Origin: an uncultured Vicingus sp.
GTDB lineage: Bacteria; Bacteroidota; Bacteroidia; Flavobacteriales_E; Vicingaceae
Direction: 5' to 3'
DNA: 64,000 nucleotides
NCBI GenBank assembly: GCA_964371285.1
Contig: CAYJMI010000002.1
Span: 880 to 64,879, forward strand
Below are positions 23,501 through 46,765 of this stretch, piece by piece. Every line of letters begins with the position of its first letter. The stretch's first letter is position 1. Position numbers and translations under genes: made by a program. The notes under the pieces are model-generated. The model was not told the DNA's origin, searched no databases, and saw nothing but the letters and a program-made list of their open reading frames with translations.

Positions 23501-24930
23501 ATCTTTCCTTCCACACCTACCAATGCCAAAATAGGCAAGTAAACAATCAGAATAATAATTTCTCCAAATGCTGCTGAGCTTCTAATTTTTGTAGAAGCGA
23601 TATAAACTTGCTCATTCATTTGCTTTCTTGTAAGCAATGATGTGCCTGATAATTGTTTATTGTGTACAAGTATTCGATGTACAATACTTTCAACAATAAT
23701 TACCGCTCCATCTACAATTAATCCAAAATCAATGGCTCCTAAACTCATTAAATTACCTGAAACGCCAAACAAATTCATCATCCCAAATGCAAATAACATG
23801 GCTAATGGAATAACGGAAGCAACGACTAATCCAGCTCTAACATTCCCAAGTAAAAGAATCAAGATAAAAATGACAATTAATGCTCCTTCTAACAAATTTT
23901 TTGTCACAGTTCCAATGGCATTATCAACTAATTTTGTTCTATCTAAAAAAGGTTCAATTACTACACCTTCAGGTAATGTTTTTTCTATTTGGATTATTCG
24001 CTCTTTAATGTTCTCAATTACTTTAGCTGAGTTTTCTCCTTTCAACATCATGACAATAGAACTCACAACTTCCCCTTCTCCATTTCGGGTTGATGCTCCG
24101 TAACGAACAGCACTTCCATATTGAACGATAGCTGCATCTCTAATCAAAACAGGATTCCCAGATGGATTATTTTTAATCACAATCTTTTCTATATCTTCAA
24201 TACTCCCAACCATTCCTTCACTTCTAATAAAGTAAGCATTCGGCTTTTTATCTATATAAGCTCCTCCGGTATTTTGATTGTTTTTTTCTAGAGCAGTAAA
24301 AACATCAGAAATACTGATGTTCATACTTCGTAATTTTTCTGGGTTAATGGCTATTTCATATTGCTTCAAGTAACCACCAAAACTACTTACATCAGCTACT
24401 CCGGGTGTACCCAATAATTGTCGTTTGATAATCCAGTCCTGGATGGTTCTAAGCTCCATTGCAGAATACTTATCCTCATAACCTTTTTTAGTATGCACAA
24501 CATATTGGTAAATTTCTCCCAACCCCGTAGTTACAGGAGCCATTTCAGGAGTTCCAATACCCTTTGGAATTTGATTTTTAGCCTCCGTAAGCCTTTCGTT
24601 TACTTGCTGTCTTGCCCAATAGACATCAACATTTTCTTTAAATACAATGGTTACAACTGACAATCCAAAACGAGAAAAAGAGCGTATCTCTTCTATCTCT
24701 GGAATAGTTGCCATCGTGATTTCAACAGGAAATGTAATAAGTTTTTCTACTTCCTGTGCTGCCAATGAAGAAGCAATCGTGATTACTTGTACTTGATTAT
24801 TGGTAATATCTGGAACTGCATCTATGGGAAGTTGCTTTAAGGAATAACTCCCCCATGCAATTAGACCTAATATCATAAGGACTATTACCAATTTATTTTT
24901 TATGGAAAATCCAATTAATTTATCTATCAT
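20536..24930 (-). CDS. CusA/CzcA RND permease (aa 1-1043) fused in frame to a TolC-family outer-membrane factor (aa 1044-1464)
   Basis: No stop between ...VLPVLYIYFEKGIKKVK and MNTTLIMIGMMLLPALTFAQ, an intact signal peptide with its internal ATG at 21801. The downstream 421 aa have an outer-membrane-factor repeat pattern. Confidence 0.9.
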   Translation of the reverse strand: MIDKLIGFSIKNKLVIVLMILGLIAWGSYSLKQLPIDAVPDITNNQVQVITIASSLAAQEVEKLITFPVEITMATIPEIEEIRSFSRFGLSVVTIVFKENVDVYWARQQVNERLTEAKNQIPKGIGTPEMAPVTTGLGEIYQYVVHTKKGYEDKYSAMELRTIQDWIIKRQLLGTPGVADVSSFGGYLKQYEIAINPEKLRSMNISISDVFTALEKNNQNTGGAYIDKKPNAYFIRSEGMVGSIEDIEKIVIKNNPSGNPVLIRDAAIVQYGSAVRYGASTRNGEGEVVSSIVMMLKGENSAKVIENIKERIIQIEKTLPEGVVIEPFLDRTKLVDNAIGTVTKNLLEGALIVIFILILLLGNVRAGLVVASVIPLAMLFAFGMMNLFGVSGNLMSLGAIDFGLIVDGAVIIVESIVHRILVHNKQLSGTSLLTRKQMNEQVYIASTKIRSSAAFGEIIILIVYLPILALVGVEGKMFKPMAQTVSFAILGAFILSLTYVPMMSALVLSRKTAYKKNISDKLMEFFQRIYSPFIHTALKHKGSVILVSSGLFLLSIFTFMNMGGEFIPTLDEGDFAVETRVMTGSSLSETVDAATKAEKVLLVNFPEVIQVVGKIGSGEIPTDPMPVEACDLMIILKDKDEWTSAQTREELAEKMGEALAVIPGVTFGFQQPIQMRFNELMTGARQDVVIKIYGDDLAVLSEYANKVGGIVKTVNGASDLYVEQVEGLPQIQIEFNRDEIAKYGLNIQDVNTVIETAFAGKSAGVVYEGERKFDIVVRFDKQHREEIENVSNLFVTTPDGHQIPLNQVANVSFQDGPNQIQRDDTKRRITIGFNVRNRDVESIVDEIKNKIDAKIDFPVGYYPTYGGQFENLVEARQRLSIAVPVALFLIFILLFFTFKSIKQSLLIFTAIPLSAIGGVFALYLRGMPFSISAGIGFIALFGVAVLNGIVLIGEFNRLKKDGMTDLKEIVLKGTEIRLRPVLMTALVASCGFLPMALSGSSGAEVQRPLATVVIGGLLTATLLTLIVLPVLYIYFEKGIKKVKMNTTLIMIGMMLLPALTFAQNDPDNYQEEKSLSLHEAINMALENNLTVKSAKLEVEYNQQQKKTSTDVGKTQFNWQHGQYNSIVKNDNYFSVSQTFAFPTVYIKNNKVANSSIKSSQYQQAIIENELIAEVKVTYYKLLNTQSNLKLLIKLDSIYADFSKAAEIKYQTGESNLLEKTTAQTQAMELKNKLRLVNADVKIFRNQLEILLNTNERITISNQEAVKKEITTSLNTGSAYSNNPALAYLQQEVVIEEERKSLENAKLLPDFTVGYFNQSMIGNQTVNGTEQYFGSGDRFSGFQIGIAIPLWFRPYTSKVQAAKVRTQIAESNFEQYQKSLEGKYQQAIHEYNKYKSGLSYYEENALAQSELILKNAQKAFKNGTIGYVEYVQAINQATQIQTNWLETLNNYNQAIIQLEFLAGIK

Positions 24931-28482: not shown

Positions 28483-28689
28483 TTAACAACAATTTTTGCT
28501 TTCCTGAATAGGAGGACAAGGAACCGACCCATAAGAACAATACACACAACAATCATTGTTAATGGGTTTTAGAACCGTTTTACATTTCTCACATTCGTAG
28601 AAATATTGACAAGCATCTGTCGGCATTGTTTCTTCTTTTTTATGTCCACAATTAGGACAAGTAATAGTTGATTTTAATTCTAGGGTCAT
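28483..28689 (-). CDS. GDCCVxC-motif cysteine-rich small protein
   Basis: Zinc-ribbon-like CPNCGH ... CEKCK and NDCCVYCSYGSVPCPP; overlaps the merTP stop. Confidence 0.7.
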   Translation of the reverse strand: MTLELKSTITCPNCGHKKEETMPTDACQYFYECEKCKTVLKPINNDCCVYCSYGSVPCPPIQESKNCC

Positions 28690-29294
28690 TTTTTCTCGAT
28701 TTTAGTTATTTTATATCCTGTTGAATTTACCGCTTCCTCAATTTCTAATATATTAGTTTGAGTGTTATCAAACTCAATAGTTGCTTTTCTTTTAGTATAA
28801 GAAGTTTTTACCGCTACAATTCCTGATAGCTCTTTTACCGCATGATTCACATGGTTTTGGCAAGCATCACAAGTCATCCCTTCTATACTTACTTCAATTT
28901 TCTGAATATTTGAATTATTCACTACAACTACTTCTTGTTGATTATCTAGGAAAAATATTCCTGAATAATAAGGTAAGGTAATTGAAATAGATGCAAATAA
29001 AGTAATCCCTACTAAAAAGCCTTTGGTTTGATACCACTTCGGTTTTTCAATATCGCAGTCACAATCATCGACTTTAGTAGGTTTTAAATAATTATACCAA
29101 GCATATCCAATAGCGATAACTGCTAATCCAATTAAGTAAGGTCGAAAAGGTTCTATCCATGATAAACTTCCAACAGCTCCACCAACTCCTGCTATGGCTG
29201 CAATTACAGGTGGAATACAACAAGAAGATGCAGCCAATGCTGCAATAATACCAGTTGTAACAGCTCCTTTTGATTTTTTGTTTTGGTTCTTCAT
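28686..29294 (-). CDS. merTP: Mercuric transport protein MerT-like fused to an HMA (MerP-like) domain
   Basis: AASSCCIPPVIAAIAG in TM1; C-terminal GMTCDACQNHVNHAVKEL HMA domain. Confidence 0.8.
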   Translation of the reverse strand: MKNQNKKSKGAVTTGIIAALAASSCCIPPVIAAIAGVGGAVGSLSWIEPFRPYLIGLAVIAIGYAWYNYLKPTKVDDCDCDIEKPKWYQTKGFLVGITLFASISITLPYYSGIFFLDNQQEVVVVNNSNIQKIEVSIEGMTCDACQNHVNHAVKELSGIVAVKTSYTKRKATIEFDNTQTNILEIEEAVNSTGYKITKIEKK

Positions 29295-29698
29295 TATGCA
29301 ACCTTTTTAATTGATTTGTGATTAAATATTTCAAATATATGTTTCAATATTTCTTGAGCATCAGGATGGATAGCATAATGAATAGTCTGTCCTTCTTTTT
29401 CGCTTTTTAAAAGATCTGTGTCTTTCAATTTTCTTAATTGTTGGGAAACAGCAGAAATGGAAATCCCCAAAATATCGCTCAAATCACATACACATACTTT
29501 TTGCTCGTTTTTAATGAGTAATAAAATTTTTAGCCGTGTCTTGTTTCCAATTAAGTTTAATATTTTGGCAGATTTTTCAATTTGTTCGGACAAATCATTT
29601 ACTTCTAATATCCCTCTATTTATAAGATTTACATTAGCACACCCTCTGATACAAGTTTCTTCTGTTTTTTTCATATTTAAGTATTTGCTTAAATTCAA
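29294..29698 (-). CDS. ArsR/SmtB-family metalloregulator
   Basis: KVCVCDLSDILGISISAVSQQLRKLKD (CVC metal site plus wHTH). The track start is a TTG lying inside a -7 box, so the ATG at 29674 is the more likely start. Confidence 0.8.
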   Translation of the reverse strand: MNLSKYLNMKKTEETCIRGCANVNLINRGILEVNDLSEQIEKSAKILNLIGNKTRLKILLLIKNEQKVCVCDLSDILGISISAVSQQLRKLKDTDLLKSEKEGQTIHYAIHPDAQEILKHIFEIFNHKSIKKVA

Positions 29699-29752: not shown

Positions 29753-31087
29753 TTATAATTCCCTAATAATTACTCCCTCATCAATTGAGTACACCCAACC
29801 GATAGTTCCATAACGTCCTTTTTCCATAACAGCAATTCGTTCTTCGTCTTTGAGTTGAACATCAATGGTAGCCGAACTGTTGAATTTGATAGATGAACCA
29901 CCTCTCATTGTTCCTGCTTTAGTCTTTTGAAAAATGATAATAAAAATGGTTTTCGGAAAATCCTGTCGTAATCGTTCAAATTCTTCCGCTTTTACATTCA
30001 GCTTTTGAAAACTGTCAATCACAATCAAATCATAATTTTTGGCATCATTTCTCACTTCTCTTAATGTTCCGTTGCCTGTGATGGTCAGGTTGTTATCCAA
30101 GTTGTAATACCTCACTTTGTTTTGGGTTAGTTTTCCCAATCCTTCTTCTAAAGCAAAATATTTAGCTTTAAAGTTATGGTCAATAAATGCTTTTGCCAGT
30201 TCAAAGGAAAAATAGCTTTTCCCTGCTCCATCTAATTGCTTAAATCCGTTTGAACCATATTGGAAGGTTTCCACCATATAAGCGAAGTTTTTATGTGAAT
30301 TTCCAACAACTGCGTGAAGGTTTCTACCTCCGAAACTTCCACCTAACAAACTTATTTTTCCTAAAAATTCATTAGGAATTTCTGTAGAAATTAGATTGAT
30401 TGCACCTCCTGTTGTGTAAGGGCCGTATTTAATCTGACTACTCCCTTTTATAATTTCTATACCTTGCATTCTTCCTATTGTGGGGAAATAGTAAGCGGCT
30501 GGTGCTGCATAAGGAGCGGGAGCCATTAATATACCATCCTCCATTACCGTTATTTTTGTATTCCGATCAACTCCTGTACCTCTTAATCCGATATTTGGAA
30601 AGAGTCCAAATCCATCTTCCTCTTGTACATTTACTCCTGGTACAGATCGTAAAGTGCGGTTAATATCTGTATAGCTGAATTTTTGAATTTCTTTTGGTGA
30701 GATATAATGTACTGAACCTGGAATATCTCGTATGCCATTACTACCACCAGTTATAGTTACTTCTAGTAGAGTAGATATGGTTTCTCTCATTATAAAATCC
30801 TGTTTCGTAATCCCACTTTTCCCAACGCTTATTTCTTTTTTAATAGTAGAATAACCGATACTTGAAACTACCAATGTATAGTTCCCTTCTGGCACATTTT
30901 TTATTACATAATTACCGCTTGCATTAGTTGAAGTACCAATATTGGTTTTGTCCAAGTAAACTGAGACATTTGCCAAGGCACTTGTACTATCTGTGTTTTT
31001 TATACTCCCTTCAATGCTTGCGTTTTGGGCGAAAGCACCTATATAACTTATTGTCGCAATTACTGTTGTTATGATAATTTTCTTCAT
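29753..31087 (-). pseudogene. Chimeric ORF: TonB-dependent receptor N-terminus (CarbopepD_reg plus plug) joined to the C-terminal part of a RecA/DnaB-like P-loop ATPase
   Basis: aa 1-~286 show signal peptide, GSIKNTDSTSALANVSVYL, and plug motifs IEIIKGSSQIKYGPYTTGGAINLIS. From ~aa 288 the sequence reads AGKSYFSFELAKAF...YDLIVIDSFQKL...IFIIIFQKTKAGTMRGGSSIKFNSSATIDV. There is no beta-barrel. Confidence 0.6.
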
Positions 31088-32214: not shown

Positions 32215-32874
32215 TTATACAGAACAGTAAGAATCCATAAATATTTTAAACTTTTCAATATTTGAATCTTCTGTTATGGTTAATTGCCAATATTCCGAAT
32301 CTTTGTAATTCCTTTTACCAACATTTGATTCCTGATTACAAGTATATAGGTAATAACCTATTTGAGTTTTTAAATCAGCGACTTTCAAATTATTATGATT
32401 TAAACTCACCAAACAATTCTGGTGGGATTCTATACATTCAAAAATATTTTGTTTATTCTTAGGAATTAACTCTTTTAATAAGGTTTCTATTACACCATCA
32501 TCATTATTATTTGGCCATATAAAATAATCAAATTTTACATTTTTATTATTTATTATATCAACTAATTTTCTCTTACAAGCTGCATACCCTTTATTCCCTA
32601 GCCTAGTCCTTTCATAATCAGCATCAAATATAACAATGTTTTGATATCCAGTATCTATGTTATCTTGCAACTCGTTAATATAAATTTGATTTGATAACTT
32701 CGTACACCCTCCTACATCTGTTATTGTAATATCTAGTTGATTATTCTTAATCTTAAATGGTTTTTTTTTTGACTCCTCGTCTCTTAATAATTGGATGCCA
32801 TAAAATAAACGAAGAAAGTCCGAAATAAACACTTGATCAGTTAACCCTTCACAATATATTTTCAATTTAATCAT
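32215..32874 (-). CDS. Toprim-like small protein (DUF4276/RloB-type), putative nuclease partner of the upstream ATPase
   Basis: KIYCEGLTDQVFI (conserved Glu) and NIVIFDADYE (DxD) at Toprim-like spacing; 8-nt overlap with the upstream gene. Confidence 0.6.
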   Translation of the reverse strand: MIKLKIYCEGLTDQVFISDFLRLFYGIQLLRDEESKKKPFKIKNNQLDITITDVGGCTKLSNQIYINELQDNIDTGYQNIVIFDADYERTRLGNKGYAACKRKLVDIINNKNVKFDYFIWPNNNDDGVIETLLKELIPKNKQNIFECIESHQNCLVSLNHNNLKVADLKTQIGYYLYTCNQESNVGKRNYKDSEYWQLTITEDSNIEKFKIFMDSYCSV

Positions 32875-35800
32875 GTGATAACCCTCCCCTAATTTCTATT
32901 TGATCTACATATGCTAAACTAAAACTCGAATATTCTAAAGAGCGTATTTTTAAGTTATTAACCTGCTTCATTTGAACAACTCTTGAAACTGATTGATATT
33001 CTAGACCAAAAGCAGATTCATTTAATACTTCCTTGAAAAATTTTATACATTCATCATTATGAGTTGTTGCTATTATTTGCGTGCCGTCTTCTTTTGCTAT
33101 ATTTAATAAGATCCTCCAAAACTGTTTAAATCTTGAAAAATGAATTCCAGCATCTATCTCATCTATTAATAATATTTTCCCTTTATGAACAGTTAAAAAG
33201 ATAAGAATTCTAAAAAGCTTATTAGCTCCTTCCCCATATTGACTCAAACCTCTATCTTCCTCATAGTCATTATCTCTAATATCTATTGCTCCATCAGTTC
33301 TAACAAAAACTTGTTCTGCATTAGGAATAAATACTCTCAATCGATTTAAAAATTCTTTTTCTAACCTCTTATTTGGTCTAATCTTAGAATCATAAACCAA
33401 AGATAAATCGAATCCATAACCTTTTCCATATGGAATATAGGGTTGATTAGTTCCGTCGTTATATGGTATATTATTTAAAACCTCTAAATCCTTTTCCGAG
33501 AAATAAGGTTTTTCAGTATTAGGTTCAAATTGATAATTTATTTCATAATTCCAAAAGCTTCTCTTATCAAAAAGATTAAAATGAGTGCTTTTTAATTGAT
33601 TATTACAATTTTTGTATTCAGATATAAATTCAGGATTAATATTATAATAAAGGTCTGTTGATTTTGAATTTTCCTTTTTATCAGGGTGTATATTTATTCT
33701 GTCAATATATGCAAATGCCAATCTTTCTAAATATTTTTTCTTTTCAGGAACAAATAACAAAGCTTCTAATAATGATGTTTTACCAATATTATTATCTCCA
33801 ACCACGAGATTAAATAGACCTAAATTTTCTATTATTACATAATCAAACCTTCTAAAATTCTTAATTTCAATATTATAAATATGATTTGGGAACTGTTCCC
33901 TTAGTTCTTTAGGTTGTAAATCAATTTGATCTATTTCTGATTTAGTAAAAGGAAAATATTTAAACTCAAACTTATTAGCTAATTTTTTATATTTATCATT
34001 AATATCTTCAAGTAAAAATCCAGATAAAAAACTATTCTTAACCCACCTATTAAGTACAAAATTAAATATGTTGAGATTTATTAAATTACCATTTAATAAA
34101 TCTTCATAATAACTCACCAATTCTGAGTTTCTATTGTTTTCATGAAATAAATTTTCAACTTTCTGAGAAATAAATAGTAAATCATTATTCTCTATGTCCG
34201 TTGTTAAGAATGATAAGTATAAATATAGATTAGTATAGATATTATTCGATTTCCTTAATGTAGCAAAATTAGCCTGATAAACATCATTCAATTCTTCTGC
34301 AATCTCCTTTTTATTTACTATTTCTATTTCTATTGCTATTCTTCCTAAATAAATAATAATTTCTTCTATATCATTCTTCTTCTTAGCTAATTCTAATTTC
34401 ACTTTTAGATATAGCTGATTTTCAATACCATTGTTTTCAAGAATTGATATTGCCGATTGAAACTTGCCTATCAAATAATACTTATTAGCTATAATTTCAA
34501 TAATATCTCTATCTTCATTAGTACAAATTTCTTCTAAAATATCACAAATTAAAGTGATTTCATCATTATCAGCAGATCTCTCTAGCACATTACGAATCTC
34601 ATCTATAGCTTCTCTTCTCCAAGTTGTAAGTTGGATTATCTTTCTCAAATTAGAACTCTCTCTATGTAAAATTTGTAAGTCAGAAACAGACAATGTAGAT
34701 TCAATGAAAAGAATTGATATTAATTTTTTTAATTGATTATCCTCACTTGGAGATTTTTCAAAAATTTCTATCAGTTTCCCCCAATATTTCCCTTGCCAAT
34801 AACAATCTATTGCATATTCTACTCCTTCACTTCCAACTTCTTTTTCTAAATAAAACAAAGCTGCTTTATCCCAATTCTGGTGAATTTTTTGAATCTCAGC
34901 TAAACATAAAAAATACTCTTTCTTGTTTCCAAGTTTTATAAAGTGACTTGATGCAACCTGTAACAATGGTATATTCCCTTCAAATACTCCTTGTTTTTTT
35001 TGTCTATGAGCATCTTCTTCAAGAATTGATTCAGAACTTTGAATTATTTCGTTAGCATCAAAAATTATTAAATCAGTAAAATTATTAAGATCAACACCTA
35101 CTTTTTTTACCCATTCAGATTTAATATAATTATCAATCAAATCCTTCCAAAAATTATCTTTTGACTCTTGACTATCAATTATTACTAATTCTGTTTGTGC
35201 ACGAGTAACAGCGACATATAGTTTATTATAAAAAAATCTTTTACCATAAATGCCTGCTGTTTCAATTTTTTTAATATACTCTTCTCCAAATCCAAAAATA
35301 GCTACTTCGCTAAAGTCCAATCCTTTAGCATCAACTGCAGAAATTATATTTTTAAATTTTTTTAAAATTTCATACCTTTCTTTATACTCTGGAATTTCAT
35401 CGTAATTAACAGGAACAATTATTGTTTTATACTCAACCTTTTTTTGAAGTTCTATATTATTGGAAAAAGTATTAATATCCACAAAAACATTTAAATGTTC
35501 ATTTTGATACATTACTGGTCTTTTTGAAGTTTGTGGATTTTGTACGTTTGCTTTTAGCTTATCTTTTCTATAATATTGAATAGAATTTGCCACATTAACA
35601 ATTGACTGGGAAGAACGATAATTATAAGTAGGTGTAAAAACCAATTTTGACTGGTCTAATTTATACCCAGTTTTTTCTTTTGTTAATTCTTCATAAATCA
35701 TTGAAGTTAAAACTTCTGATCTAAACCCTGTTGGATTAACTGTTTGAAGTGCATCTCCTGCAAAAACAATTGGATATTGTTCTACATTGGATAAATTATA

Positions 35801-37423
35801 TTTTGCATAAGTAGAAAGTTGCATTATAAACTCTAGTTCAACTTTACTAAAATCTTGTGATTCATCACAGAAAATAACATCAAAGGTTTTATCAATTTCA
35901 ACATTTGAATTAATATAGCGAATAAGTTTTATTTTATCCCAATACCCTTCTTCATTTAGAAGTTTATTATAGAAAGGGGATATTATTTCTGTTTCAATTC
36001 CTTTAAGATCATCCTTCGAAATAATGTCTTTACCTTCTTTTGGCATTTTCTCATCATAATTTTCACTATTAATTTGAAAGTCTAAACTATTCCCATTAAC
36101 ATAAGTACTTATAGTAAACCAAACTAACTCCGCTGAAAACCTTTGTTTAATATGTTTTTGAATATTTGATTGTTCATATAAATACTTAAACTTAGAAAAA
36201 TCTAAATATTTATCTGGTTTAAATTCATTATTATCCTTTGGAATTAGTTCTAATAAGAATTTTTTAAATGGATAAAAATGTTTATCAACATTAACTATGG
36301 CTTCAGGTTCAGATGATAAATCAAATTCTGGATTATTAATTAAAAGATCGTATACTGCTCTTTGGGTATGCCCTAAAAGCTTTTCATTTTCAGTTAAAAA
36401 TATAATATCTCCAGGTATTTCTCCTGCATATTTATAATAATACACATTAGAAAAAAGATAATACAACATTGTTGATTTCCCACTTCCAGCTTGACCATTT
36501 ATATATTTAGGAAATTTAAACTCTTTTAAAAATTCCGTCTGTTCAGGTAATAGCGATAAATTACCTAATTCATTATTTTTTTCAATTTTAACCCATAAAT
36601 CAGCATCATTTATTGCCCAACTTGGATAAGCTTTTGACGCTATACTACTCATATCTTTATAAGAAGTAAATCTTACTTCTTTTTCAAATTTAAAATTTTT
36701 AACTTTCTCCCAATGTTCATTTTGAGTCTTAATATTTGCACCATTTTCAAGCAAATAAAAATTATTATTATCTAGAACAACTTTTATAAATACTACTCCT
36801 ATATCATTATAAATAATATTTAATACTTCATAGGTTTCTGTTTTTTTAATAGAAGTAATAAACTCTTTACTTTCTCTAATAATTTCCTTAATTGTCAACA
36901 AGAATAGTTTTACTTCATCATTTTTCATTCCAACAGTTTTTGAATCGCTCATTGCAAACTTAACCCAAGTCTGAGATTCAAAAATATTATAATCGACCTT
37001 TAACTTATAATCACTTTGCCAAGTTATAAGCTCCTGAGGCGGTGGCAAAATATCATCTTCTCCTTTTTGTTCTCTTAAAATACTTTCTTCAAATCTAGAG
37101 ACATCTTCTTCTGGCAATGGGTTATATGTAAGCCACTTACCGTCCCGTATAGATACATAATCTTCTAACCCATTTTTTTGACCTCTAACAAAATAGACTA
37201 AATACTCTTTGTCATTAATAGAGATGCGTTTTTCTTGAAAAATTATCTCTGAATAAGGATTTTTTATTCTTAAAACATTAATTCCTTTTGTAAAACCTGT
37301 AACTTTTCCAATACCTTTAAGAGTTGTTGAATTTTTATTATTCTCAATAAAAGTGGACACTGCTTTTTTTACATCAGAAGAAATATTATCTATATATAAT
37401 TGGCAATAATGAAATTTCATCAT
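32867..37423 (-). CDS. 1518-aa multidomain protein: unknown N-domain, SF1 UvrD-like helicase, helical repeat region, C-terminal ABC/AAA_21 (OLD/GajA/AriA-type) ATPase
   Basis: Helicase motifs are GQAGSGKST (aa 310-318), FCDESQDF (518-525), FAGDALQTV, YNYRSSQSI, AKGLDFSEV and LYVAVTRAQTELVII. ATPase motifs are VVGDNNIGKTSLLEAL (1207-1221), LSQYGEGANKLF, ILLIDEIDAGIH and IIATTHN. Confidence 0.85.
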   Translation of the reverse strand: MMKFHYCQLYIDNISSDVKKAVSTFIENNKNSTTLKGIGKVTGFTKGINVLRIKNPYSEIIFQEKRISINDKEYLVYFVRGQKNGLEDYVSIRDGKWLTYNPLPEEDVSRFEESILREQKGEDDILPPPQELITWQSDYKLKVDYNIFESQTWVKFAMSDSKTVGMKNDEVKLFLLTIKEIIRESKEFITSIKKTETYEVLNIIYNDIGVVFIKVVLDNNNFYLLENGANIKTQNEHWEKVKNFKFEKEVRFTSYKDMSSIASKAYPSWAINDADLWVKIEKNNELGNLSLLPEQTEFLKEFKFPKYINGQAGSGKSTMLYYLFSNVYYYKYAGEIPGDIIFLTENEKLLGHTQRAVYDLLINNPEFDLSSEPEAIVNVDKHFYPFKKFLLELIPKDNNEFKPDKYLDFSKFKYLYEQSNIQKHIKQRFSAELVWFTISTYVNGNSLDFQINSENYDEKMPKEGKDIISKDDLKGIETEIISPFYNKLLNEEGYWDKIKLIRYINSNVEIDKTFDVIFCDESQDFSKVELEFIMQLSTYAKYNLSNVEQYPIVFAGDALQTVNPTGFRSEVLTSMIYEELTKEKTGYKLDQSKLVFTPTYNYRSSQSIVNVANSIQYYRKDKLKANVQNPQTSKRPVMYQNEHLNVFVDINTFSNNIELQKKVEYKTIIVPVNYDEIPEYKERYEILKKFKNIISAVDAKGLDFSEVAIFGFGEEYIKKIETAGIYGKRFFYNKLYVAVTRAQTELVIIDSQESKDNFWKDLIDNYIKSEWVKKVGVDLNNFTDLIIFDANEIIQSSESILEEDAHRQKKQGVFEGNIPLLQVASSHFIKLGNKKEYFLCLAEIQKIHQNWDKAALFYLEKEVGSEGVEYAIDCYWQGKYWGKLIEIFEKSPSEDNQLKKLISILFIESTLSVSDLQILHRESSNLRKIIQLTTWRREAIDEIRNVLERSADNDEITLICDILEEICTNEDRDIIEIIANKYYLIGKFQSAISILENNGIENQLYLKVKLELAKKKNDIEEIIIYLGRIAIEIEIVNKKEIAEELNDVYQANFATLRKSNNIYTNLYLYLSFLTTDIENNDLLFISQKVENLFHENNRNSELVSYYEDLLNGNLINLNIFNFVLNRWVKNSFLSGFLLEDINDKYKKLANKFEFKYFPFTKSEIDQIDLQPKELREQFPNHIYNIEIKNFRRFDYVIIENLGLFNLVVGDNNIGKTSLLEALLFVPEKKKYLERLAFAYIDRINIHPDKKENSKSTDLYYNINPEFISEYKNCNNQLKSTHFNLFDKRSFWNYEINYQFEPNTEKPYFSEKDLEVLNNIPYNDGTNQPYIPYGKGYGFDLSLVYDSKIRPNKRLEKEFLNRLRVFIPNAEQVFVRTDGAIDIRDNDYEEDRGLSQYGEGANKLFRILIFLTVHKGKILLIDEIDAGIHFSRFKQFWRILLNIAKEDGTQIIATTHNDECIKFFKEVLNESAFGLEYQSVSRVVQMKQVNNLKIRSLEYSSFSLAYVDQIEIRGGLSHD

Positions 37424-37890: not shown

Positions 37891-38820
37891 ATGAACGATA
37901 TAAAAACCTTGATTGGATCATTTAAGAAAGTTCCCGTCTGGAAAGATTTTATTAAAGAAAATTTTGATAGAAAGACAAGCAACTATAATTATGCTGATGT
38001 TTCAAATATAAAGGTTGAATATGATAATCAAACCTACTTCTATCCAACTAAAATTATTTTAAAAGATGGGTATGTTAGACAAAAAAAAAATATACAAAAA
38101 GTAGAAAATACATCTTTAAATAATAAACCAGTAAAAATTACTGAAACAACTAGTATTATTCCATTTAGTTTTTATAAAAGAAATGAAAAATATACAGGAG
38201 ATTTATTTGAATGTCTTGACGATATTTTATGTGATAATGATATGAAAATAAAAGATTATGGATTTTACTCTCCAGAACTACTCTCGTATAGAAATACACC
38301 CCTTTTTAGTATTGATTCTAAATTAAGGTGGTCTTCATATATGTTAATTCTAGAACAAGAAAAACCAAAGACTGAAGTTTCAAAAGAGGCCCCTGCTGAA
38401 TTAAAGGATATTTTAGCAGATTATGGTATTAATTACAATTATGAAAATGAGTTAAATAATTATACCATTATCCTTTTCCCTATGGCTTTTGTTAAGGCAA
38501 TAGAAAATAGAATACAAAAAAAGGATGGAAGAGAATCAATTTTTTTAGTTTTAGAATACAATCAACTTGGCTTGTTCTTTTCTTCAAAATTTGAAATTAC
38601 AATTGATATAATAATTAAAGATTTTAATCAGAAAATAATATATAGAAAAAATTATCCTATCGAGTTTCAGAAATCAAAATATCAAATAGTAAATATATAT
38701 CCCGAGAAAGATGGAGAAATAGGTTATTGTTCTTTTTCAATAAAGATAAATAATGCTATTGTTGATACCTCCTCTGGATATTACATCCGTGATATAAAGG
38801 TAAATATTAAACCACAATAA
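37891..38820 (+). CDS. Hypothetical protein, first gene of a three-gene operon
   Basis: 309-aa ORF with no motif I recognise, no signal peptide and no TM; 1 nt from the next gene. Confidence 0.6.
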   Translation: MNDIKTLIGSFKKVPVWKDFIKENFDRKTSNYNYADVSNIKVEYDNQTYFYPTKIILKDGYVRQKKNIQKVENTSLNNKPVKITETTSIIPFSFYKRNEKYTGDLFECLDDILCDNDMKIKDYGFYSPELLSYRNTPLFSIDSKLRWSSYMLILEQEKPKTEVSKEAPAELKDILADYGINYNYENELNNYTIILFPMAFVKAIENRIQKKDGRESIFLVLEYNQLGLFFSSKFEITIDIIIKDFNQKIIYRKNYPIEFQKSKYQIVNIYPEKDGEIGYCSFSIKINNAIVDTSSGYYIRDIKVNIKPQ

Positions 38821-38821
38821 A

Positions 38822-39709
38822 ATGAGGAGACCGATATTTGAAAAAGCTCCTGATTATCCTGTCCGTGTAGCAGTTTGTTCTTTATATTCGTTTTTAGAAG
38901 TAGATCCTTTTTCTGTAAAAATTGATGCTGAAAAAATGAAAAAGATTGATTTCATTCTAGAACAATCTAAAGGAGTAAATTTTATATTATTTCCTGAATA
39001 TACTTATTCTGATGTATTACGTCTTAAATTACAGAAGTATTGTGATGATAATGATTGTATTATAATTGCAGGAAGTGGATTGGAAAAAACACCAGAAGAT
39101 ACTTTTTATGCTTATTGTCCTGTTTTTTCTCCAAATAATGAACTAACTAAAGTCTATAAAAAATTTATAACTCCATCTGAAAAAGTTTATGCTGCTAATA
39201 AAATAGTTCCTTACCCTAATGAAACTCAAAGAATAATTAGATTAAATGCAAATTCATTAGACGACTACTGTTTTACTATTTCAGTATATGTATGTTATGA
39301 TTTCATACAAGAAAATAAGAAAGAAAGAACCGATATTATTTTTGTTCCACAATATGAAAAATCTCCACATATGTTTATTAATGAAGGTGATAGGATTTCA
39401 AAAGGAGAGAATTGTTTTGTTTTAGGTGCCAATAATGTAGATAATAATCAAAGAAGCTTAGGATTTGTTGGACTCAACTCTACTATAATTAATGCATTAT
39501 CTAATAAATGTTGGCGTCCATCAAGTTATAATGATGGAGACAAAGAAAAGAAATTTCCTTATCATCATACTATAATATATGATACAACTGGGGAACGAAT
39601 CTTAATTCTTGATATCAATCTTTCAAAGCCCTATTCTCTGTCTCATGATTATAGTGTTAACGAAACGATGCCAGTAGTTATACCAATTAAAATAATTGAA
39701 ATAACTTAA
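38822..39709 (+). CDS. Carbon-nitrogen hydrolase (nitrilase) superfamily protein
   Basis: VRVAVCS first strand; FILFPEY (E59), VYKKFITPSE (K113) and ISVYVCYDFIQE (C158) give a Glu-Lys-Cys triad context and spacing typical of the superfamily. Confidence 0.65.
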   Translation: MRRPIFEKAPDYPVRVAVCSLYSFLEVDPFSVKIDAEKMKKIDFILEQSKGVNFILFPEYTYSDVLRLKLQKYCDDNDCIIIAGSGLEKTPEDTFYAYCPVFSPNNELTKVYKKFITPSEKVYAANKIVPYPNETQRIIRLNANSLDDYCFTISVYVCYDFIQENKKERTDIIFVPQYEKSPHMFINEGDRISKGENCFVLGANNVDNNQRSLGFVGLNSTIINALSNKCWRPSSYNDGDKEKKFPYHHTIIYDTTGERILILDINLSKPYSLSHDYSVNETMPVVIPIKIIEIT

Positions 39710-39714
39710 ACACT

Positions 39715-40932
39715 ATGCAAAAGAATGAAAAAAATAATTTACTTGATTTCTTAGGGCAAGAGAAACCTGTTAATCAATACAAACAGTTTTTTAAAATGCA
39801 TCTAATTAATCTTAGTAATAGACAAGAAATATTAACTAAACTAGTTCATTTATGTAATGAAGTCCGAAAAACTGAACCAAAATTTGTGTTTAGTCCTGAC
39901 CCTGAAAGACACAAATTGGAAGTTAAAATTGATAGTTTTCTCAAAGAAAACTTTGATGATGAAATTATAAAGTTATTCAATAAAGAAATCCCCACTCTCA
40001 AACCAAATAGAAAAGATAATGAATTTGAAGACTCATTTTTATTAGGATTATTAGCAGCAATGTCTGATTCTTTTGAACAACTTAATGAGAAATATAAAAA
40101 AGAATGGAACTATAAAACAAATTTCTTAAATTTTCTTTATGATTGTTTATACCACTATGGTTTGCACCCAAATATATTAATAAGGGATGCTGAAATCAAT
40201 AAATCATTTAATTTAATTATCTACCATAATTATAGAAGTGATACTAAACTTCTAGATTTTAAAATTTTGATGACTTATGAAGAATTTGATAAAAGTTTTA
40301 TCAGTCAATATGTAAAACAAAAGCCAATAAAAATGGGTGGTAAATTAATTCCTTTTGAAAATATACATGAAGTAAAAATCACAACTAGCTTATTAAAAGA
40401 AGATGAAATAGAGTTATTTGCTTTAAAAAATCGATTTTGTTGGACAGAGAATAAAAAAGATTATCTCTCATTTATTAATTGTTCTAAGGATGAAACAGAA
40501 ACATATCATCCTAATCCATTTGATGAAACAACACACAATACTGAATTAAATAAATTTCTTATTGAGGAAATAAAACACTATCTAATATCTTATCCTAAAT
40601 CATTTAAATTATACATGAGTGCCTTAAGTAAATTTAATCAAGGTAATCTTGAAAGAAATGTATTGGATGATTTAAGACTATCGCTTGAATTATTATTAAG
40701 GGAAATATTGAACAATAAAAAATCTTTGGAAAATCAATTATCAGAAGTTGGAAATTATCAAAATAAAAGAGGGGCTACTCGAGAGGCGACTAATATGTTT
40801 CACAAGTTGATAGAGTATTACACTAAATACCATAATAGTTATATTAAACACGATGATTTAGTTCAGAAAAATGAAGTTGAGTTTGTTTTTGATTTAACAG
40901 GAACATTTATTAAATACTTGATTAAAGAATAG
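39715..40932 (+). CDS. Hypothetical protein, third gene of the operon; helical C-terminus with a possible HEPN/DUF4145-like Rx6H
   Basis: 405-aa ORF, 5 nt after the previous stop. LRLSLELLLREIL ... REATNMFH (R356-H363) is only suggestive. Confidence 0.6.
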   Translation: MQKNEKNNLLDFLGQEKPVNQYKQFFKMHLINLSNRQEILTKLVHLCNEVRKTEPKFVFSPDPERHKLEVKIDSFLKENFDDEIIKLFNKEIPTLKPNRKDNEFEDSFLLGLLAAMSDSFEQLNEKYKKEWNYKTNFLNFLYDCLYHYGLHPNILIRDAEINKSFNLIIYHNYRSDTKLLDFKILMTYEEFDKSFISQYVKQKPIKMGGKLIPFENIHEVKITTSLLKEDEIELFALKNRFCWTENKKDYLSFINCSKDETETYHPNPFDETTHNTELNKFLIEEIKHYLISYPKSFKLYMSALSKFNQGNLERNVLDDLRLSLELLLREILNNKKSLENQLSEVGNYQNKRGATREATNMFHKLIEYYTKYHNSYIKHDDLVQKNEVEFVFDLTGTFIKYLIKE

Positions 40933-41008: not shown

Positions 41009-41785
41009 CTATATCTTACTAGAATAATATTCTTTAAACCAGTCAGGAACAATGTCTTTATCAATTACATCCCAATTCTTAATGTTATCTTTATCCAGTT
41101 TAAAATGAGCAAATAATGATTGTTTACCATCGCCATCTTCCGAATTGTCAAAATAAAATGCCTGATAAGCATATTGAGATGCTTCATGAAGTAAATCCAT
41201 TGAACGATAATACCTATCGGTTATTTTATCTTTAGGGACATCATGACCACCTTGTTTAACTCTTACTTCAACACGGTATTGATTAATGGCAGGTGATTTA
41301 GTTGAAATAAAGTATAAATAAACTTTATATCCAGCTCTCACAGCCTCTTTCATAATATCAACTTTGCTAGGATGTGAAAAAACCGTTTCAAAAGAGAATT
41401 TTTTTCGCTCTGCTAATAATTTTTTTCTTAACACATGTGCAATTATTTGTGCTAAATGCTCATCTGCCTTTGGTTCTACCAAATGAATTGTATTTTCTGT
41501 AAGTTTAAATGACGATTTGAATAGTTTTTCATTAAAACTATTCCCAACTAATCCTGAATCCAAGGCAATCCTTACAAACTCTTCTTCTTGAAGATTTATC
41601 TTGTATTTTCTAAAGGAACATTTGCCTTTTCTCAGTTCTTTAGCAATTAAATCAGCATTTACATAAATACCAAAATCTATAGGCACATTATTTACTTTAT
41701 GGTTTCGTACTTTGTTAATGATGGTGCTTTTCCCAGATCCATTTGGACCGGCAAAAACCCTCATTCTTAATGTTCCGTTAGTCAA
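41009..41785 (-). CDS. Zeta-toxin-like P-loop kinase family protein
   Basis: VFAGPNGSGKSTI Walker A; GGHDVPKDKITDRYYRSMDLL signature of the zeta/COG4185 family. Confidence 0.75.
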   Translation of the reverse strand: MTNGTLRMRVFAGPNGSGKSTIINKVRNHKVNNVPIDFGIYVNADLIAKELRKGKCSFRKYKINLQEEEFVRIALDSGLVGNSFNEKLFKSSFKLTENTIHLVEPKADEHLAQIIAHVLRKKLLAERKKFSFETVFSHPSKVDIMKEAVRAGYKVYLYFISTKSPAINQYRVEVRVKQGGHDVPKDKITDRYYRSMDLLHEASQYAYQAFYFDNSEDGDGKQSLFAHFKLDKDNIKNWDVIDKDIVPDWFKEYYSSKI

Positions 41786-43329: not shown

Positions 43330-44076
43330 ATGAAAATCCAATACGCATCAGACCTTCATCTTGAATTTCCACAAAACAGAAACTGGATTGCTCAATATCC
43401 AATCATACCTGTAGGAGATGTTTTAATCCTAAATGGAGACATTACCATTTTAAGAAAAGGCTTTGAAAATGACTCTTTCTTTGATTTTGTTTCTGAGAAT
43501 TTTAAGCAAACCTACATTATCCCAGGTAATCACGAATTTTATGGAGGTTATGACATGAGAAATGTTTTGGAGTTAAATCTTGATATACGCCACAATGTTA
43601 AACTTTTAAATAACCAAACGATTAATTTTGGTTCAACAAAAATTATTTTCACTACTTTGTGGACACACATTAGCAATAGTTTAATTGAGAATTATTTAAA
43701 CGATTTCCATAAATCCTATTATAAAAACACCCGACTAAATACAAAAAATTACAACCTACTCCACCAAGAATGTGTTGCATTTTTAGAAAAGGAATTAGCG
43801 AATAACAACTCCGAAAAAACAATTGTGGTTTCTCATCATATCCCTACTGAAAAAGCCAATGGTTTTGTTGGTGGTGACCCAATAATGGGTCAAGCTTTTG
43901 TGGTTAATTTAGAATCTTTATTAGAGAAATACTCCATAGATTATTGGATATATGGTCACTCTCATAGAAATAAAGATTGTGAAGATTTTGGAATACAATT
44001 TAAAAGTAACCAGTTGGGATATGTACACTGGGATGAACATAAAGATTTTAATAGAGAAGCCCTAATCGAAATCTAA
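43330..44076 (+). CDS. Metallophosphoesterase (calcineurin-like)
   Basis: ASDLHLEF, LNGDIT, PGNHEFYGG, VVSHH, YGHSH metal-ligand motifs in canonical order. Confidence 0.8.
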   Translation: MKIQYASDLHLEFPQNRNWIAQYPIIPVGDVLILNGDITILRKGFENDSFFDFVSENFKQTYIIPGNHEFYGGYDMRNVLELNLDIRHNVKLLNNQTINFGSTKIIFTTLWTHISNSLIENYLNDFHKSYYKNTRLNTKNYNLLHQECVAFLEKELANNNSEKTIVVSHHIPTEKANGFVGGDPIMGQAFVVNLESLLEKYSIDYWIYGHSHRNKDCEDFGIQFKSNQLGYVHWDEHKDFNREALIEI

Positions 44077-44286: not shown

Positions 44287-45060
44287 ATGAGCTATACCAC
44301 CATAAAAAATAAAAAGCAATATCAGGAGTATTCCGATAAGGTTATAGAGTTGGCTTCAAAAAAACCTACTAAGGAGATTGAAGATGAAATGGAATTGTTG
44401 GAACTCCTTATTGATAACTATGAAAGTAAGATTTACGCTACTGAAACGAAAGACCCTATTGTGTTGTTAAAAAGCTTGATGGAAGTCCATCAGCTTAAGA
44501 GTGTTGATTTAGTTAATATTTTAGGAATTCAGCGAAGTGCTGTAAGCCAAATATTATCCTACAAAAAAGGGCTTTCTAAAGATGTTATCCGCAAACTATC
44601 TGAACACTTTAAATTATCTCAAGAGGCATTTAATAGAAGCTATGAACTTTTATCACGTTCAAATCAAAGAAATATTTCCAAAAAGAAAAAAGAAACAACT
44701 TATTTACTTAGCAACCCTAATAATGCTAAAGCCTTAGAAGAAAGCAAACAAGAGATTGAACAAGGGGAAACCATTCGATACAAACTATTGGAACTAAAGA
44801 AAAAGATTGGTAACAAGGGATTAGTAAAAAAATACCTGGTTAAATCAACCTTTTGGGATGCCGAATTTGAGAGTTTAGATCTTGAAAAAGATAAAGGCTA
44901 TATTATTTCAAGAATTGCTGAAAGAGGAACAGATATTGAAGTGAATTTTATCATATCTTATTATCCAAAAGAAGATGTTCTTTTTGTCGTAAACAACTCT
45001 CCTGAAATAACACCAAAAACAAAAAATTACTTCAATACCATTGTTTACGAAAGCTGCTGA
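44287..45060 (+). CDS. HigA-like HTH antitoxin-type N-terminus fused to a DUF6922-like C-terminal domain
   Basis: The N-terminus (IKNKKQYQEYSDKVIEL...LLELLIDNYE...LKSVDLVNILGIQRSAVSQILSYKKGLS) matches the HigA/YddM layout. The C-terminus has STFWDAEFESLDLEKDKGYIISRIAERG. Confidence 0.6.
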   Translation: MSYTTIKNKKQYQEYSDKVIELASKKPTKEIEDEMELLELLIDNYESKIYATETKDPIVLLKSLMEVHQLKSVDLVNILGIQRSAVSQILSYKKGLSKDVIRKLSEHFKLSQEAFNRSYELLSRSNQRNISKKKKETTYLLSNPNNAKALEESKQEIEQGETIRYKLLELKKKIGNKGLVKKYLVKSTFWDAEFESLDLEKDKGYIISRIAERGTDIEVNFIISYYPKEDVLFVVNNSPEITPKTKNYFNTIVYESC

Positions 45061-45100: not shown

Positions 45101-45817
45101 ATGAGTAGAATTTTAGCCATATCAGACATTCACGGTTGCGGAAAAACATTTATAAAACTGCTACAACAAATCAAATTCAACAAAACAGACAAACTTTATT
45201 TGCTTGGCGATTTTGTTGATAGAGGAACAAACACCAAACTATTAATCGACCACATTTTAAAATTTAAGGCAGAGGGACATTTAATTGAAAAATTAATGGG
45301 AAACCATGAGGAATTGATGTTAAACAGTGTTAACTCCAATTCAGACCATGAAAGATGGTTGAGAAATGGTGGAAAAGAAACGCTTAAAAGTTTTGGAGTA
45401 ACCAACTACAACGAATTGGAGCAGCAATACAAGTTGTTCTTTAAATCCATGCTGCTTAAAGCTGAAGTGGATAATTATATCTTTGTTCATGCAGGAATAA
45501 ACAACCTTCAGTTTAAAGACCCGTTTTTACCAAGTGTGGTTTTGTGGACCAGGAATTGGTATGAGTTTTTGGATTACAAATGGTTAGGAAACCGTTATGT
45601 AATTCACGGTCATACGGCACAAACACAACTCGATATTGAAATTCAGTTTCACAACTTTGAAGAAAAAAGGGTGCTTAATATTGATGCAGGTTGTTGTTAC
45701 ACCAAAACTTATTTGTTAAAATCAGAAAGTCAGAACACTAAACCAGAATTAGGAAAACTTTGTTGTGTCGATTTAACTAACCGAAAAATATATTTTGAAG
45801 ATAACTGCGAACTTTAG
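45101..45817 (+). CDS. PPP-family metallophosphoesterase (Ser/Thr phosphatase / ApaH-like)
   Basis: ISDIHGC, LGDFVDRG, GNHE, VHAG, HGHT motifs. Confidence 0.8.
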   Translation: MSRILAISDIHGCGKTFIKLLQQIKFNKTDKLYLLGDFVDRGTNTKLLIDHILKFKAEGHLIEKLMGNHEELMLNSVNSNSDHERWLRNGGKETLKSFGVTNYNELEQQYKLFFKSMLLKAEVDNYIFVHAGINNLQFKDPFLPSVVLWTRNWYEFLDYKWLGNRYVIHGHTAQTQLDIEIQFHNFEEKRVLNIDAGCCYTKTYLLKSESQNTKPELGKLCCVDLTNRKIYFEDNCEL

Positions 45818-45901: not shown

Positions 45902-46765
45902 TTATTTACCAAAACCATTATCTTTAAATGGATTAGGTTTGTTTTTCATAACTTGATAATGTTTCTGTTCATTAGTTTTATTCCCCATCACTATATCCTT
46001 CATATCCTTTTGAATCTTCTTAATCTCATCTTCAGCTTCTAGCTTTGTAATCTCATTCAGACTTACCATAACCTTTAATTCATTTATTTTATCAGTGTAT
46101 GGTGCTAATAAGTGACTGGTATATTTCATATAACTCTTTTTTCTCTCCGAAACAGGCACCCCTCTTTTCAATACAATCGGCACATCAGCATTGTTTCCAT
46201 AACTTTCAACCTTTAAACGTATATATTCATTATAATCCGTTTGCAGTTTTTCTAAATCTTTTTTTAAACACCTAACATTTCTACGTTTAATTACATTAAC
46301 CCCTTCTCCATTTTGGTTTTTCCACTTTTGTTCTTTTCTGATGATTTCACCCATCACAATAATATGCATGTGGGGATTGTTTTCGTCATTATGTATTACT
46401 TTAGAAACGATATTATGTTCTCCATGTTTCTCTTCTATAAACTTTGAGGCGAAAATCAGGAAAGAATCACTATAGTAGTAATAATCATAAAATTCCTTTC
46501 TTCTCTCACCCACTAAACCTATAATATATTCAGCTCCAATATTTGCATTAGTTGTTTCTTTCAATTCTTCTTTTTCACCAACTTCATCAAAAATCTGAAG
46601 TAGTGTTTTATTTTCTAAATCTGAATATTTATTCAATTCCATCTTATCTGAATTAATATTTGCTGGAATATTATTTTCAGCATATTCTCGATAATTATGC
46701 TCTTGTATTTTCCCCATATCACTTCTTGATATGGGTCTAAATCTAATCAATCCTGTTACACTCAT
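45902..46765 (-). CDS. MobV-family (Mob/Pre) plasmid mobilisation relaxase
   Basis: N-terminal IQEHNYRE...NINSDKMELN and the HxDE..PHxH signature VIHNDENNPHMHIIV. Confidence 0.75.
   Translation of the reverse strand: MSVTGLIRFRPISRSDMGKIQEHNYREYAENNIPANINSDKMELNKYSDLENKTLLQIFDEVGEKEELKETTNANIGAEYIIGLVGERRKEFYDYYYYSDSFLIFASKFIEEKHGEHNIVSKVIHNDENNPHMHIIVMGEIIRKEQKWKNQNGEGVNVIKRRNVRCLKKDLEKLQTDYNEYIRLKVESYGNNADVPIVLKRGVPVSERKKSYMKYTSHLLAPYTDKINELKVMVSLNEITKLEAEDEIKKIQKDMKDIVMGNKTNEQKHYQVMKNKPNPFKDNGFGK

Follow-up and report, generated by a model that had tools for sequence, protein, structure and literature searches.

A UvrD-like helicase fused to an AbiL-type ABC ATPase and coupled to a Toprim-like gene: a candidate defence locus of an uncultured Vicingus sp.

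Introduction

Systems that pair an ATP-binding cassette (ABC) ATPase with a Toprim enzyme (OLD, Gabija, PARIS, AbiL, MADS3-4 and retron-linked forms) are among the most widespread immune modules of bacteria, and the way in which the ATPase senses an infection is understood in few of them. Here we describe a two-gene locus that appears to belong to this class, in which the ATPase forms the last part of a 1518-amino-acid (aa) protein that also carries a UvrD-like helicase. The locus lies in a stretch of 64,000 nucleotides (nt), hereafter the window, from an uncultured Vicingus sp. of the phylum Bacteroidota (assembly GCA_964371285.1, contig CAYJMI010000002.1, positions 880 to 64,879 of the forward strand).

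The closest described systems differ in how their activities are distributed between polypeptides. In class 1 OLD nucleases (e.g. P2 Old) the ABC ATPase and the Toprim domain are fused in a single chain and there is no helicase, while Gabija joins an OLD-type ATPase-Toprim protein (GajA) to a UvrD-type helicase (GajB). PARIS is composed of the ABC ATPase AriA and the DUF4435 Toprim protein AriB; it senses Ocr, cuts tRNA-Lys, and formally behaves as a toxin-antitoxin pair. AbiL of Lactococcus, an abortive-infection system demonstrated experimentally, encodes the ATPase AbiLi and the Toprim protein AbiLii, and in the PARIS/AbiL literature the ATPase is a sensor that gates the Toprim effector. 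The PADLOC collection contains a further candidate, PDC-M38, whose component A is an AAA_15/21 ATPase (typically about 350 aa) and whose component B is a DUF3226-type protein. No paper on PDC-M38 or DUF3226 was found in our literature search.

Results

Architecture of the locus

The two open reading frames (ORFs) are encoded on the minus strand and overlap by a short segment, ATGATTAA, in which the large gene has its stop codon and the small gene its start codon (Table 1). A first-pass annotation of the window had recorded the two ORFs, their overlap and a series of sequence motifs; the ORFs were recovered at the positions given for them, and all of the motifs were found. The division of the large protein into four regions was reproduced by region-specific hidden Markov models (HMMs) in 29 complete genome loci. 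The GC content of the two-gene locus is 0.264, compared with 0.31 for the whole window. In this AT-rich region, promoter and terminator scans gave scores no better than those of shuffled sequence, and neither Rfam nor a tRNA scan detected an element in the window.

Table 1. Positions of the two-gene locus and of other features of the window
Feature	Position	Strand	Remarks
Large gene	32867..37423	-	1518-aa ORF; N-terminal domain, superfamily 1 (SF1) helicase, helical region and ABC ATPase in a single polypeptide
N-terminal domain, aa 1-290	36554..37423	-	family-specific
UvrD-like SF1 helicase core, aa 291-760	35144..36553	-	Walker A K316, motif II D520/E521, motifs III-VI
Helical middle region, aa 761-1180	33884..35143	-	weakly like tetratricopeptide repeats (TPR)
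C-terminal ABC ATPase, aa 1181-1518	32870..33883	-	Walker A K1215, signature GEGA ~1397-1400, Walker B/D-loop DEIDAGIH 1421-1428, H1455
Small gene	32215..32874	-	219-aa ORF; DUF3226 / PDC-M38B, Toprim superfamily, presumed nuclease effector
Overlap of the two ORFs	32867..32874	-	8 nt, ATGATTAA
Three co-directional genes	37891-40932	+	divergent from the large gene; GC likewise low (0.26)
Zeta-toxin-like P-loop protein	41009-41785	-	
Calcineurin-like phosphoesterase genes	43330-44076 and 45101-45817		one weakly matches PDC-S10
DUF6922 gene	44287-45060		between the two calcineurin-like phosphoesterase genes
Mob_Pre relaxase	45902-46765		
HipA toxin	46959-48242		
Eco57I/MmeI-like type IIG restriction-modification protein	48799-51777		992 aa
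ParA	53072-53824		
Small partner gene beside ParA	53831-54250		
Rep3 initiator	55242-56882		
MerT-HMA fusion	28686-29294	-	
ArsR-type regulator	29294-29698	-	
TonB-dependent-receptor N-terminal fragment	29753-31087	-	444 aa; CarboxypepD_reg and Plug domains, no barrel
AcrB-OEP ORF	20536-24930	-	1464 aa

Helicase and ABC ATPase of the large protein

The set of UvrD-like SF1 motifs in the large protein is complete: I (GQAGSGKST, aa 310-318), II (DExQD type; CDESQD, 519-524), III (GDxxQ; GDALQ, 556-560), IV (NYRS; NYRSSQSI, 601-608), V (KGLEF-like; KGLDFSEV, 700-707) and VI (TRA; VTRAQTELV, 739-747). When 31 members of the family were aligned, GQAGSGKST, CDExQDF, GDxxQTVNPxGF, NYRS, KG and TRAxxEL proved to be invariant. 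Pfam recognised UvrD_C_2 in all 31 members, UvrD-helicase in 21 (best E 2.7e-6) and UvrD_C in four; the UvrD_C_2 score of the window protein is 18 bits against a cut-off of 27.4. Motifs IV and V lie only 96 residues apart, a spacing that, from the known layout of UvrD, would leave no room for a 2B domain of the UvrD type.

At the C-terminus, Pfam placed an ABC ATPase matching AAA_21 (E 5.8e-15, 56.6 bits, cut-off 27) and AAA_15 (E 6.8e-14, 52.7 bits, cut-off 32.1), with the motifs GDNNIGKTS (aa 1209-1217), LSQYGEGA (1393-1400), LLIDEIDAGIH (1418-1428) and ATTHN (1452-1456). The Walker A sequence (GxNNxGKT), DEIDxGIH and H1455 are invariant among the aligned members, and the signature GEGA is invariant or nearly so. 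The proposal that a UvrD-type helicase and an AAA_21-type ATPase are combined in one protein is thus borne out, with both nucleotide sites invariant across the family.

Among the PADLOC models, that of AbiLi (PDLC02336) was matched over positions 2-340 of its 340 by aa 1182-1512 (E 3.6e-37); five PDC-M38A models (best E 3.7e-29) and models of AriA (E 1e-17) were also matched by the ABC ATPase. Matches to GajA models comprised only stretches of about 45-70 aa in the P-loop or signature region (E 5e-8), and the GajB model matched aa 694-776 only, i.e. motifs V-VI (E 3e-7). NCBIfam offered no family name for the large protein and gave only sub-threshold P-loop matches to MAD3 and RecF, the latter with 30.6 bits against a cut-off of 172. 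A profile search of the PDB returned weak, short matches to PcrA, Rep and UvrD in the helicase region, P-loop-level matches to Rad50, RecF, PtuA and OLD, and TPR-like matches; single-sequence PDB searches with both proteins yielded nothing useful.

The helical region and the N-terminal domain

Between the helicase and the ATPase (aa 761-1180), no family besides TPR was matched. TPR_2 was found in 11 and TPR_1 in seven of the 31 members, and the segment of aa ~969-1120 accounted for the PDB profile matches, which were to designed TPR proteins (E 6e-4 to 0.03). The stretch of about 400 aa of helical repeats described in the first-pass annotation can be retained as a helical region, and its repeats are at most weakly TPR-like.

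The first 290 aa matched no Pfam, PADLOC or NCBIfam model, and Pfam gave no hits to this domain in any of the 31 members. An exhaustive HMMER search of 1.84 billion proteins yielded 54 representatives, all of them N-termini of the helicase-ATPase family, N-termini of one sister family (described below), or fragments. The additional N-terminal domain that had been noticed at first reading is private to these two families. Its AlphaFold model (predicted local distance difference test score, pLDDT, 92.2; predicted template modelling score, pTM, 0.55) is composed of two alpha/beta subdomains, and the low pTM beside a high pLDDT is consistent with two subdomains of uncertain relative orientation.

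In the predicted model both subdomains share the order beta-alpha-alpha-beta-beta-beta-beta, and the top PDB matches in Foldseek, all weak, are archaeal RelE (1wmi_A), M. jannaschii RelE, a YoeB/ParE toxin and HigB2. The alignment with 1wmi_A has an E-value of 8e-3, a TM-score of 0.65 on the target and a root mean square deviation (RMSD) of 3.2 Å. At the sequence level, a PDB profile search with this domain gave no hit. Comparison by hhalign with a presumed E. coli RelE sequence produced the expected register with a probability of only 11%. The two halves of the domain showed no mutual similarity detectable by hhalign, which leaves an internal duplication unsupported, and W97 is the sole nearly invariant residue of the first subdomain across both families. 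The RelE/ParE-like fold may be taken as a lead only, one that sequence comparison has left unconfirmed.

The small protein

The 219-aa protein matches Pfam DUF3226 (E 1.4e-10), its sole Pfam match, and the PADLOC model PDC-M38B (E 7.6e-8). It had been described earlier as Toprim-like and, more specifically, as DUF4276/RloB-like; the family assignment has to be replaced by DUF3226, and the broader one agrees with the pattern of conservation. Residues E9, G10, G56, D84, D86, G127, E130, K169 and F212 are invariant in 35 orthologues collected from the loci. E9, in the motif IYCEGLTDQ (aa 6-14), together with D84 and D86, in IFDADYE (aa 82-88), make up the Toprim glutamate and DxD signature. The glutamate is the one predicted at first, while the aspartates had been placed in the D94/D96 region.

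Among 34 relatives of the small protein, PDC-M38B was matched by all, AbiLii by 20 (best E 3.3e-15), mad4 by 17 and AriB by four, with occasional matches to RT-Toprim and Old. In Pfam, OLD-like_TOPRIM was found in 18 of these relatives (best E 8.4e-7), OLD-like_TOPRIM_1 in eight, DUF4435 in five (weakly) and DUF4276 in four, and Toprim_2 was also among their matches.

The AlphaFold model of the protein (pLDDT 93.9, pTM 0.91) has a beta-alpha-beta order of secondary structure. Its only strong PDB fold match is PH0156 (2p62; E 2.3e-5), a protein that HHpred is also reported to have retrieved for a lactococcal AriB protective against phage (PMC11381338). Among viral proteins, the best fold match is to one with a DnaG Toprim domain (E 3e-3, RMSD 3.8 Å over 127 columns). 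We regard the small protein as a probable member of the Toprim superfamily and presume it to be the nuclease effector of the locus; since the PDB fold search missed OLD, GajA and AriB, this assignment is based on the motifs, the cross-hits of profiles and the literature.

Family spread and gene linkage

A search of 5.8 billion proteins identified 188 relatives of the large protein, at least 115 of which are full-length homologues (1500-1570 aa, 35-75% identity) labelled in the source databases only as 'AAA family ATPase'. The number of these homologues and the invariant core motif residues in the 31 aligned members indicate that the fusion of helicase and ATPase did not arise by chance and is real and selected. 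In a set of 185,579 species, each represented by one genome, about 32 full-length loci were detected; nearly all belong to Bacteroidota, four to Campylobacterota and one to a metagenome-assembled genome (MAG) labelled only 'bacterium'. A homologue from Delongbacteria was present in the protein search. No near-DNA match, and no protein match covering at least 80% of the query, was found in a database of 72,556 plasmids, and 50,697 phage records gave no match.

In each of the 29 complete genome loci, the gene immediately downstream of the large one, on the same strand, is the DUF3226 gene; a broader profile removed the only apparent exception (L029). Where the loci were inspected, the overlap of the two genes was at most 8 nt and any gap between them no more than about 30 nt, and no third conserved gene was found in these neighbourhoods. 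A longer variant occurs in a Sphingobacteriales genome (L068, 1282-7867). It encodes a 1981-aa protein whose helicase spans aa 354-850 and whose ABC ATPase spans aa 1625-1981, with a linker of about 770 aa between them, and it is likewise followed by a DUF3226 gene.

Stand-alone pairs and a sister family

Operons also exist in which an AAA_15/21 ATPase of 348-355 aa stands alone and is followed by a DUF3226 gene (including L071), so that relatives of the ATPase and the DUF3226 protein occur without a helicase. The ABC domain of the window protein aligns end to end with such ATPases, with 38% identity to one of 355 aa and 26% to one of 348 aa located beside a DUF3226 gene; the small protein is 26% identical to the DUF3226 partner of the stand-alone pair. 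These alignments and the profile matches indicate that the core of the locus, i.e. the C-terminal 338-aa ATPase and the 219-aa DUF3226 protein, is homologous to a stand-alone pair of the AbiL/PDC-M38 type.

The N-terminal part of the large protein has relatives of its own. At about 35 loci (within L033-L070; e.g. L035 9632-13861, L036 9524-14161, L064 9260-13699) a lone gene codes for a protein of 1400-1580 aa in which the SF1 helicase is accompanied by part of the N-terminal domain and part of the TPR-like helical region. This sister family originates from cyanobacteria, Melioribacteraceae, Saprospira, an Ilumatobacteraceae MAG and a Heimdallarchaeota MAG. Neither an ABC ATPase nor a DUF3226 gene is present at its loci, and no neighbouring gene is conserved among them. 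The proteins gave no Pfam or PADLOC match beyond weak ones to UvrD and GajB, and their C-terminal part matched nothing in either collection.

Genomic context

The window looks like a plasmid or a mobilisable element, judged by its replication, partition and relaxase genes (Table 1), and it carries toxin and defence-type genes as well, namely HipA, the zeta-like protein, the type IIG restriction-modification gene and a strong match to PDC-S32. Of the three genes that diverge from the large gene, those for proteins of 309 and 295 aa come first and could be assigned to no family; the last encodes 405 aa, of which the C-terminal 220 match the PADLOC candidate PDC-S32 (E 8e-47). The trio does not co-occur with the helicase-ATPase gene at other loci. 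Metal-resistance genes are also present in the window. The TonB-dependent-receptor fragment is probably a truncated gene, and about 1.1 kb without a convincing ORF separates it from the small gene. The 1464-aa ORF joins an AcrB-type resistance-nodulation-division (RND) pump (aa 6-1035, E 1.7e-287) to an OEP domain (aa 1277-1462), which is an unusual fusion of an inner-membrane pump and an outer-membrane channel.

Mobile or defence-like neighbourhoods, with integrases, relaxases, restriction-modification, AbiC/AbiEii or TIR-domain genes, were found at seven of nine related loci, in agreement with the association with defence islands that the first-pass annotation had set as a test. In Flavobacterium difficile (L072) the neighbours comprise an integrase, a SEFIR/TIR gene, SocA/MqsA-type genes and RadC, and in Pedobacter agri (L073) putAbiC, SAD_SRA and HNH genes, a P4 cII-like gene and an integrase. 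The Myroides locus (L074) contains AbiEii, DUF6922, RadC and DUF3408, a marine MAG (L075) a relaxase, a type IV secretion system coupling protein and two integrases, another MAG (L080) a type I restriction-modification S subunit, and Delongbacteria (L081) a CAP12/Pycsar-type TIR gene. A metagenome contig (L082) with an RHS toxin is a borderline case, and the Flavobacteriaceae locus (L076) has no recognisable hallmark neighbours. The DUF6922 gene in Myroides lies a few genes upstream of the homologue; a gene of this family is present in the window as well.

Discussion

Relation to described systems

Comparison with the known systems would place the locus in the class of OLD-like ABC ATPase plus Toprim systems and, like AbiL, PARIS and MADS3-4, among those that have the nuclease in trans. 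By homology, as judged from the model matches, it is closest to AbiL and to the PADLOC candidate PDC-M38. Both window genes match models of PDC-M38 and are adjacent, in the same order and with the same tight coupling as in the stand-alone pairs; this assignment was made by model E-values and adjacency. The difference is that the ATPase, typically a protein of its own in PDC-M38, is here the last 338 aa of 1518, and the PDC-M38 models do not extend to the helicase arm. As regards AbiL, the likeness consists in the full-length match to AbiLi, the separation of ATPase and Toprim, and the AbiLii matches among relatives of the small protein, whereas the window's own small protein reaches no AbiLii model and AbiLi lacks a helicase, TPR or N-terminal arm.

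PARIS shares the combination of an ABC ATPase with a separate Toprim effector. Membership in PARIS fails, since the partner is not AriB/DUF4435 but DUF3226, and the helicase fusion is a further difference. The locus has the same three biochemical activities within one operon as Gabija, and it resembles class 1 OLD nucleases in its ABC ATPase plus Toprim catalytic logic, the Old and OLD-like_TOPRIM models touching relatives of the small protein. It differs from OLD in having separate polypeptides and a helicase. Assignment to Gabija was rejected because the Toprim domain is not in the ATPase polypeptide and the helicase is not a separate GajB-homologous gene; the helicase and the ATPase are in cis and the Toprim protein is in trans.

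What appears to be new here is the layout, in which a helicase-TPR-N-terminal-domain arm is fused to the ATPase, while the class of anti-phage system is already known. The arm fused to an ATPase is covered by none of the models searched. No paper describing the fusion was found in a literature search that did not extend to the ABC ATPase classification of Krishnan et al. 2020. As to whether the architecture is already a named subtype, the core corresponds to the PDC-M38 candidate, which lowers the novelty, and the arm lies outside it.

The most probable function and its alternatives

We consider that the locus encodes a defence or conflict system in which a Toprim nuclease effector is controlled by the large ATPase, and assign this explanation a probability of about 0.65. 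It is supported by the list of parts, by two ATPase sites and a set of acidic Toprim residues that are all conserved, by the strict linkage of the two genes, and by the mobile-element or defence-type context. The tight coupling of the genes supports an interaction of the two proteins without proving it.

Several observations weigh against this explanation. The small protein of the window has no direct match to AbiLii (none at E 0.1) or AriB models, the Toprim domains of OLD, GajA and AriB are absent from the top 50 PDB fold matches of its model, and the matches other than PH0156 are generic Rossmann-like folds. For the Pfam UvrD-helicase model, the large protein scores only marginally (22.0 bits, cut-off 23). 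Moreover, the interaction of the two proteins is deduced from gene linkage only, PDC-M38 is itself an unvalidated and uncharacterised candidate, and two of the nine neighbourhoods have no defence or mobile-element hallmark.

The module was originally described as a permuted form of Gabija, PARIS and OLD. The part of this description that concerns an AbiL/PARIS-type ATPase with a Toprim protein in trans agrees with our results, and descent from Gabija does not. A rewired Gabija, in which the Toprim enzyme would nick DNA at low nucleotide pools and the UvrD-like domain would sense DNA ends and hydrolyse (d)NTPs, might account for the presence of the same three activities and for the weak GajA and GajB matches. 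These matches, however, are partial and 20-30 orders of magnitude weaker than those to AbiLi and PDC-M38A, and the helicase-free ATPase-DUF3226 pairs, together with the sister family that has the arm without ATPase or Toprim, lead us to consider this explanation improbable. The same three observations make it simplest to read the locus as two independent modules joined secondarily, rather than as a rearranged Gabija. Taking into account the existence of the stand-alone pairs, the simplest history would be that a two-gene core of the AbiL/PDC-M38 type gained an N-terminal helicase arm of 1180 aa.

Another explanation draws on the setting of the locus and its relatives. The plasmid-like window contains HipA, zeta-like toxins and partition genes, relatives lie within integrative or conjugative elements, and the toxin-antitoxin behaviour of PARIS offers a precedent; the large protein could then be an antitoxin to a toxic Toprim nuclease, with the module stabilising a plasmid or island or excluding rival plasmids and conjugative elements. 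A protein of 1518 aa with two ATPase sites is, however, far more elaborate than a typical antitoxin, and the helicase points to surveillance of nucleic acids. We regard such a role as rather unlikely; it would in any case be compatible with defence. A housekeeping function in repair or recombination, suggested by the combination of a RecF/Rad50-like ATPase (weak RecF and Rad50 N-terminal matches), UvrD-type motifs and a Toprim nuclease, is scarcely credible for a family so rare and patchy, whose sites are plasmids, islands and low-GC segments and whose best matches are models of defence systems; the RecF match, as noted, is confined to the P-loop and far below its cut-off.

It may also be asked whether the helicase arm is the primary immune protein, with the N-terminal domain as an RNase effector, the TPR-like region as a sensor and the ABC-Toprim pair as an add-on effector. 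The single-gene sister family, which has the arm without any conserved partner, suggests that the arm could be an autonomous immune module, and the resemblance of the N-terminal model to RelE, YoeB/ParE and HigB toxins, with the expected hhalign register, points in the same direction. Against this stand fold matches with E-values of 8e-3 and worse, the lack of support from Pfam and PDB sequence profiles, the presence of only W97 as a near-invariant residue of the first subdomain, the absence of sequence relationship between the halves of the domain, and the use of a presumed RelE sequence. We therefore think it improbable that the arm is the primary immune protein.

Returning to a Toprim nuclease controlled by the large ATPase, the following sequence of events can be proposed by analogy with PARIS, AbiL and Gabija. 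The large protein would assemble through its ABC heads and keep the Toprim protein inactive. The arm composed of helicase, TPR-like region and N-terminal domain would detect infection, perhaps by binding a phage protein, perhaps by loading onto replication intermediates or the ends of foreign DNA. The ABC site, itself coupled to that of the helicase, would then turn over ATP and so release or activate the Toprim enzyme, which would cut nucleic acid by means of a metal site formed by E9, D84, D86 and E130. It might attack DNA, like OLD and GajA, or tRNA, like AriB, and the cutting would stop the invader or abort the infection. This specific order of steps is tentative and less likely than not. 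A bolder version, in which a distinct and unnamed type of defence couples a helicase acting on the nucleic acid of the invader in cis to the ABC gate of a Toprim enzyme in trans, the arm being also an autonomous immune module with a RelE/ParE-like RNase domain, seems to us unlikely. If true, it would be a dual-effector machine linking the Gabija-type and the PARIS/AbiL-type logics.

Significance

The fusion described here is clean, well conserved and open to experiment, and two defence logics meet in it, yet domain shuffling among such modules is common. With the smallest AbiL-type ATPase and a helicase in one chain, the family offers a natural test of whether a Toprim nuclease gated by an ABC ATPase can be opened by helicase activity on DNA. 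It indicates, in addition, that helicase, ATPase and Toprim have come together in the manner of Gabija at least twice, by different wiring. If protection were demonstrated, DUF3226, including the crystal structure of PH0156, would be tied to Toprim defence effectors, and a helicase-TPR family with a private N-terminal domain would be flagged for study. Moreover, the Bacteroidota, whose defence repertoire is experimentally little explored, would gain a defence system.

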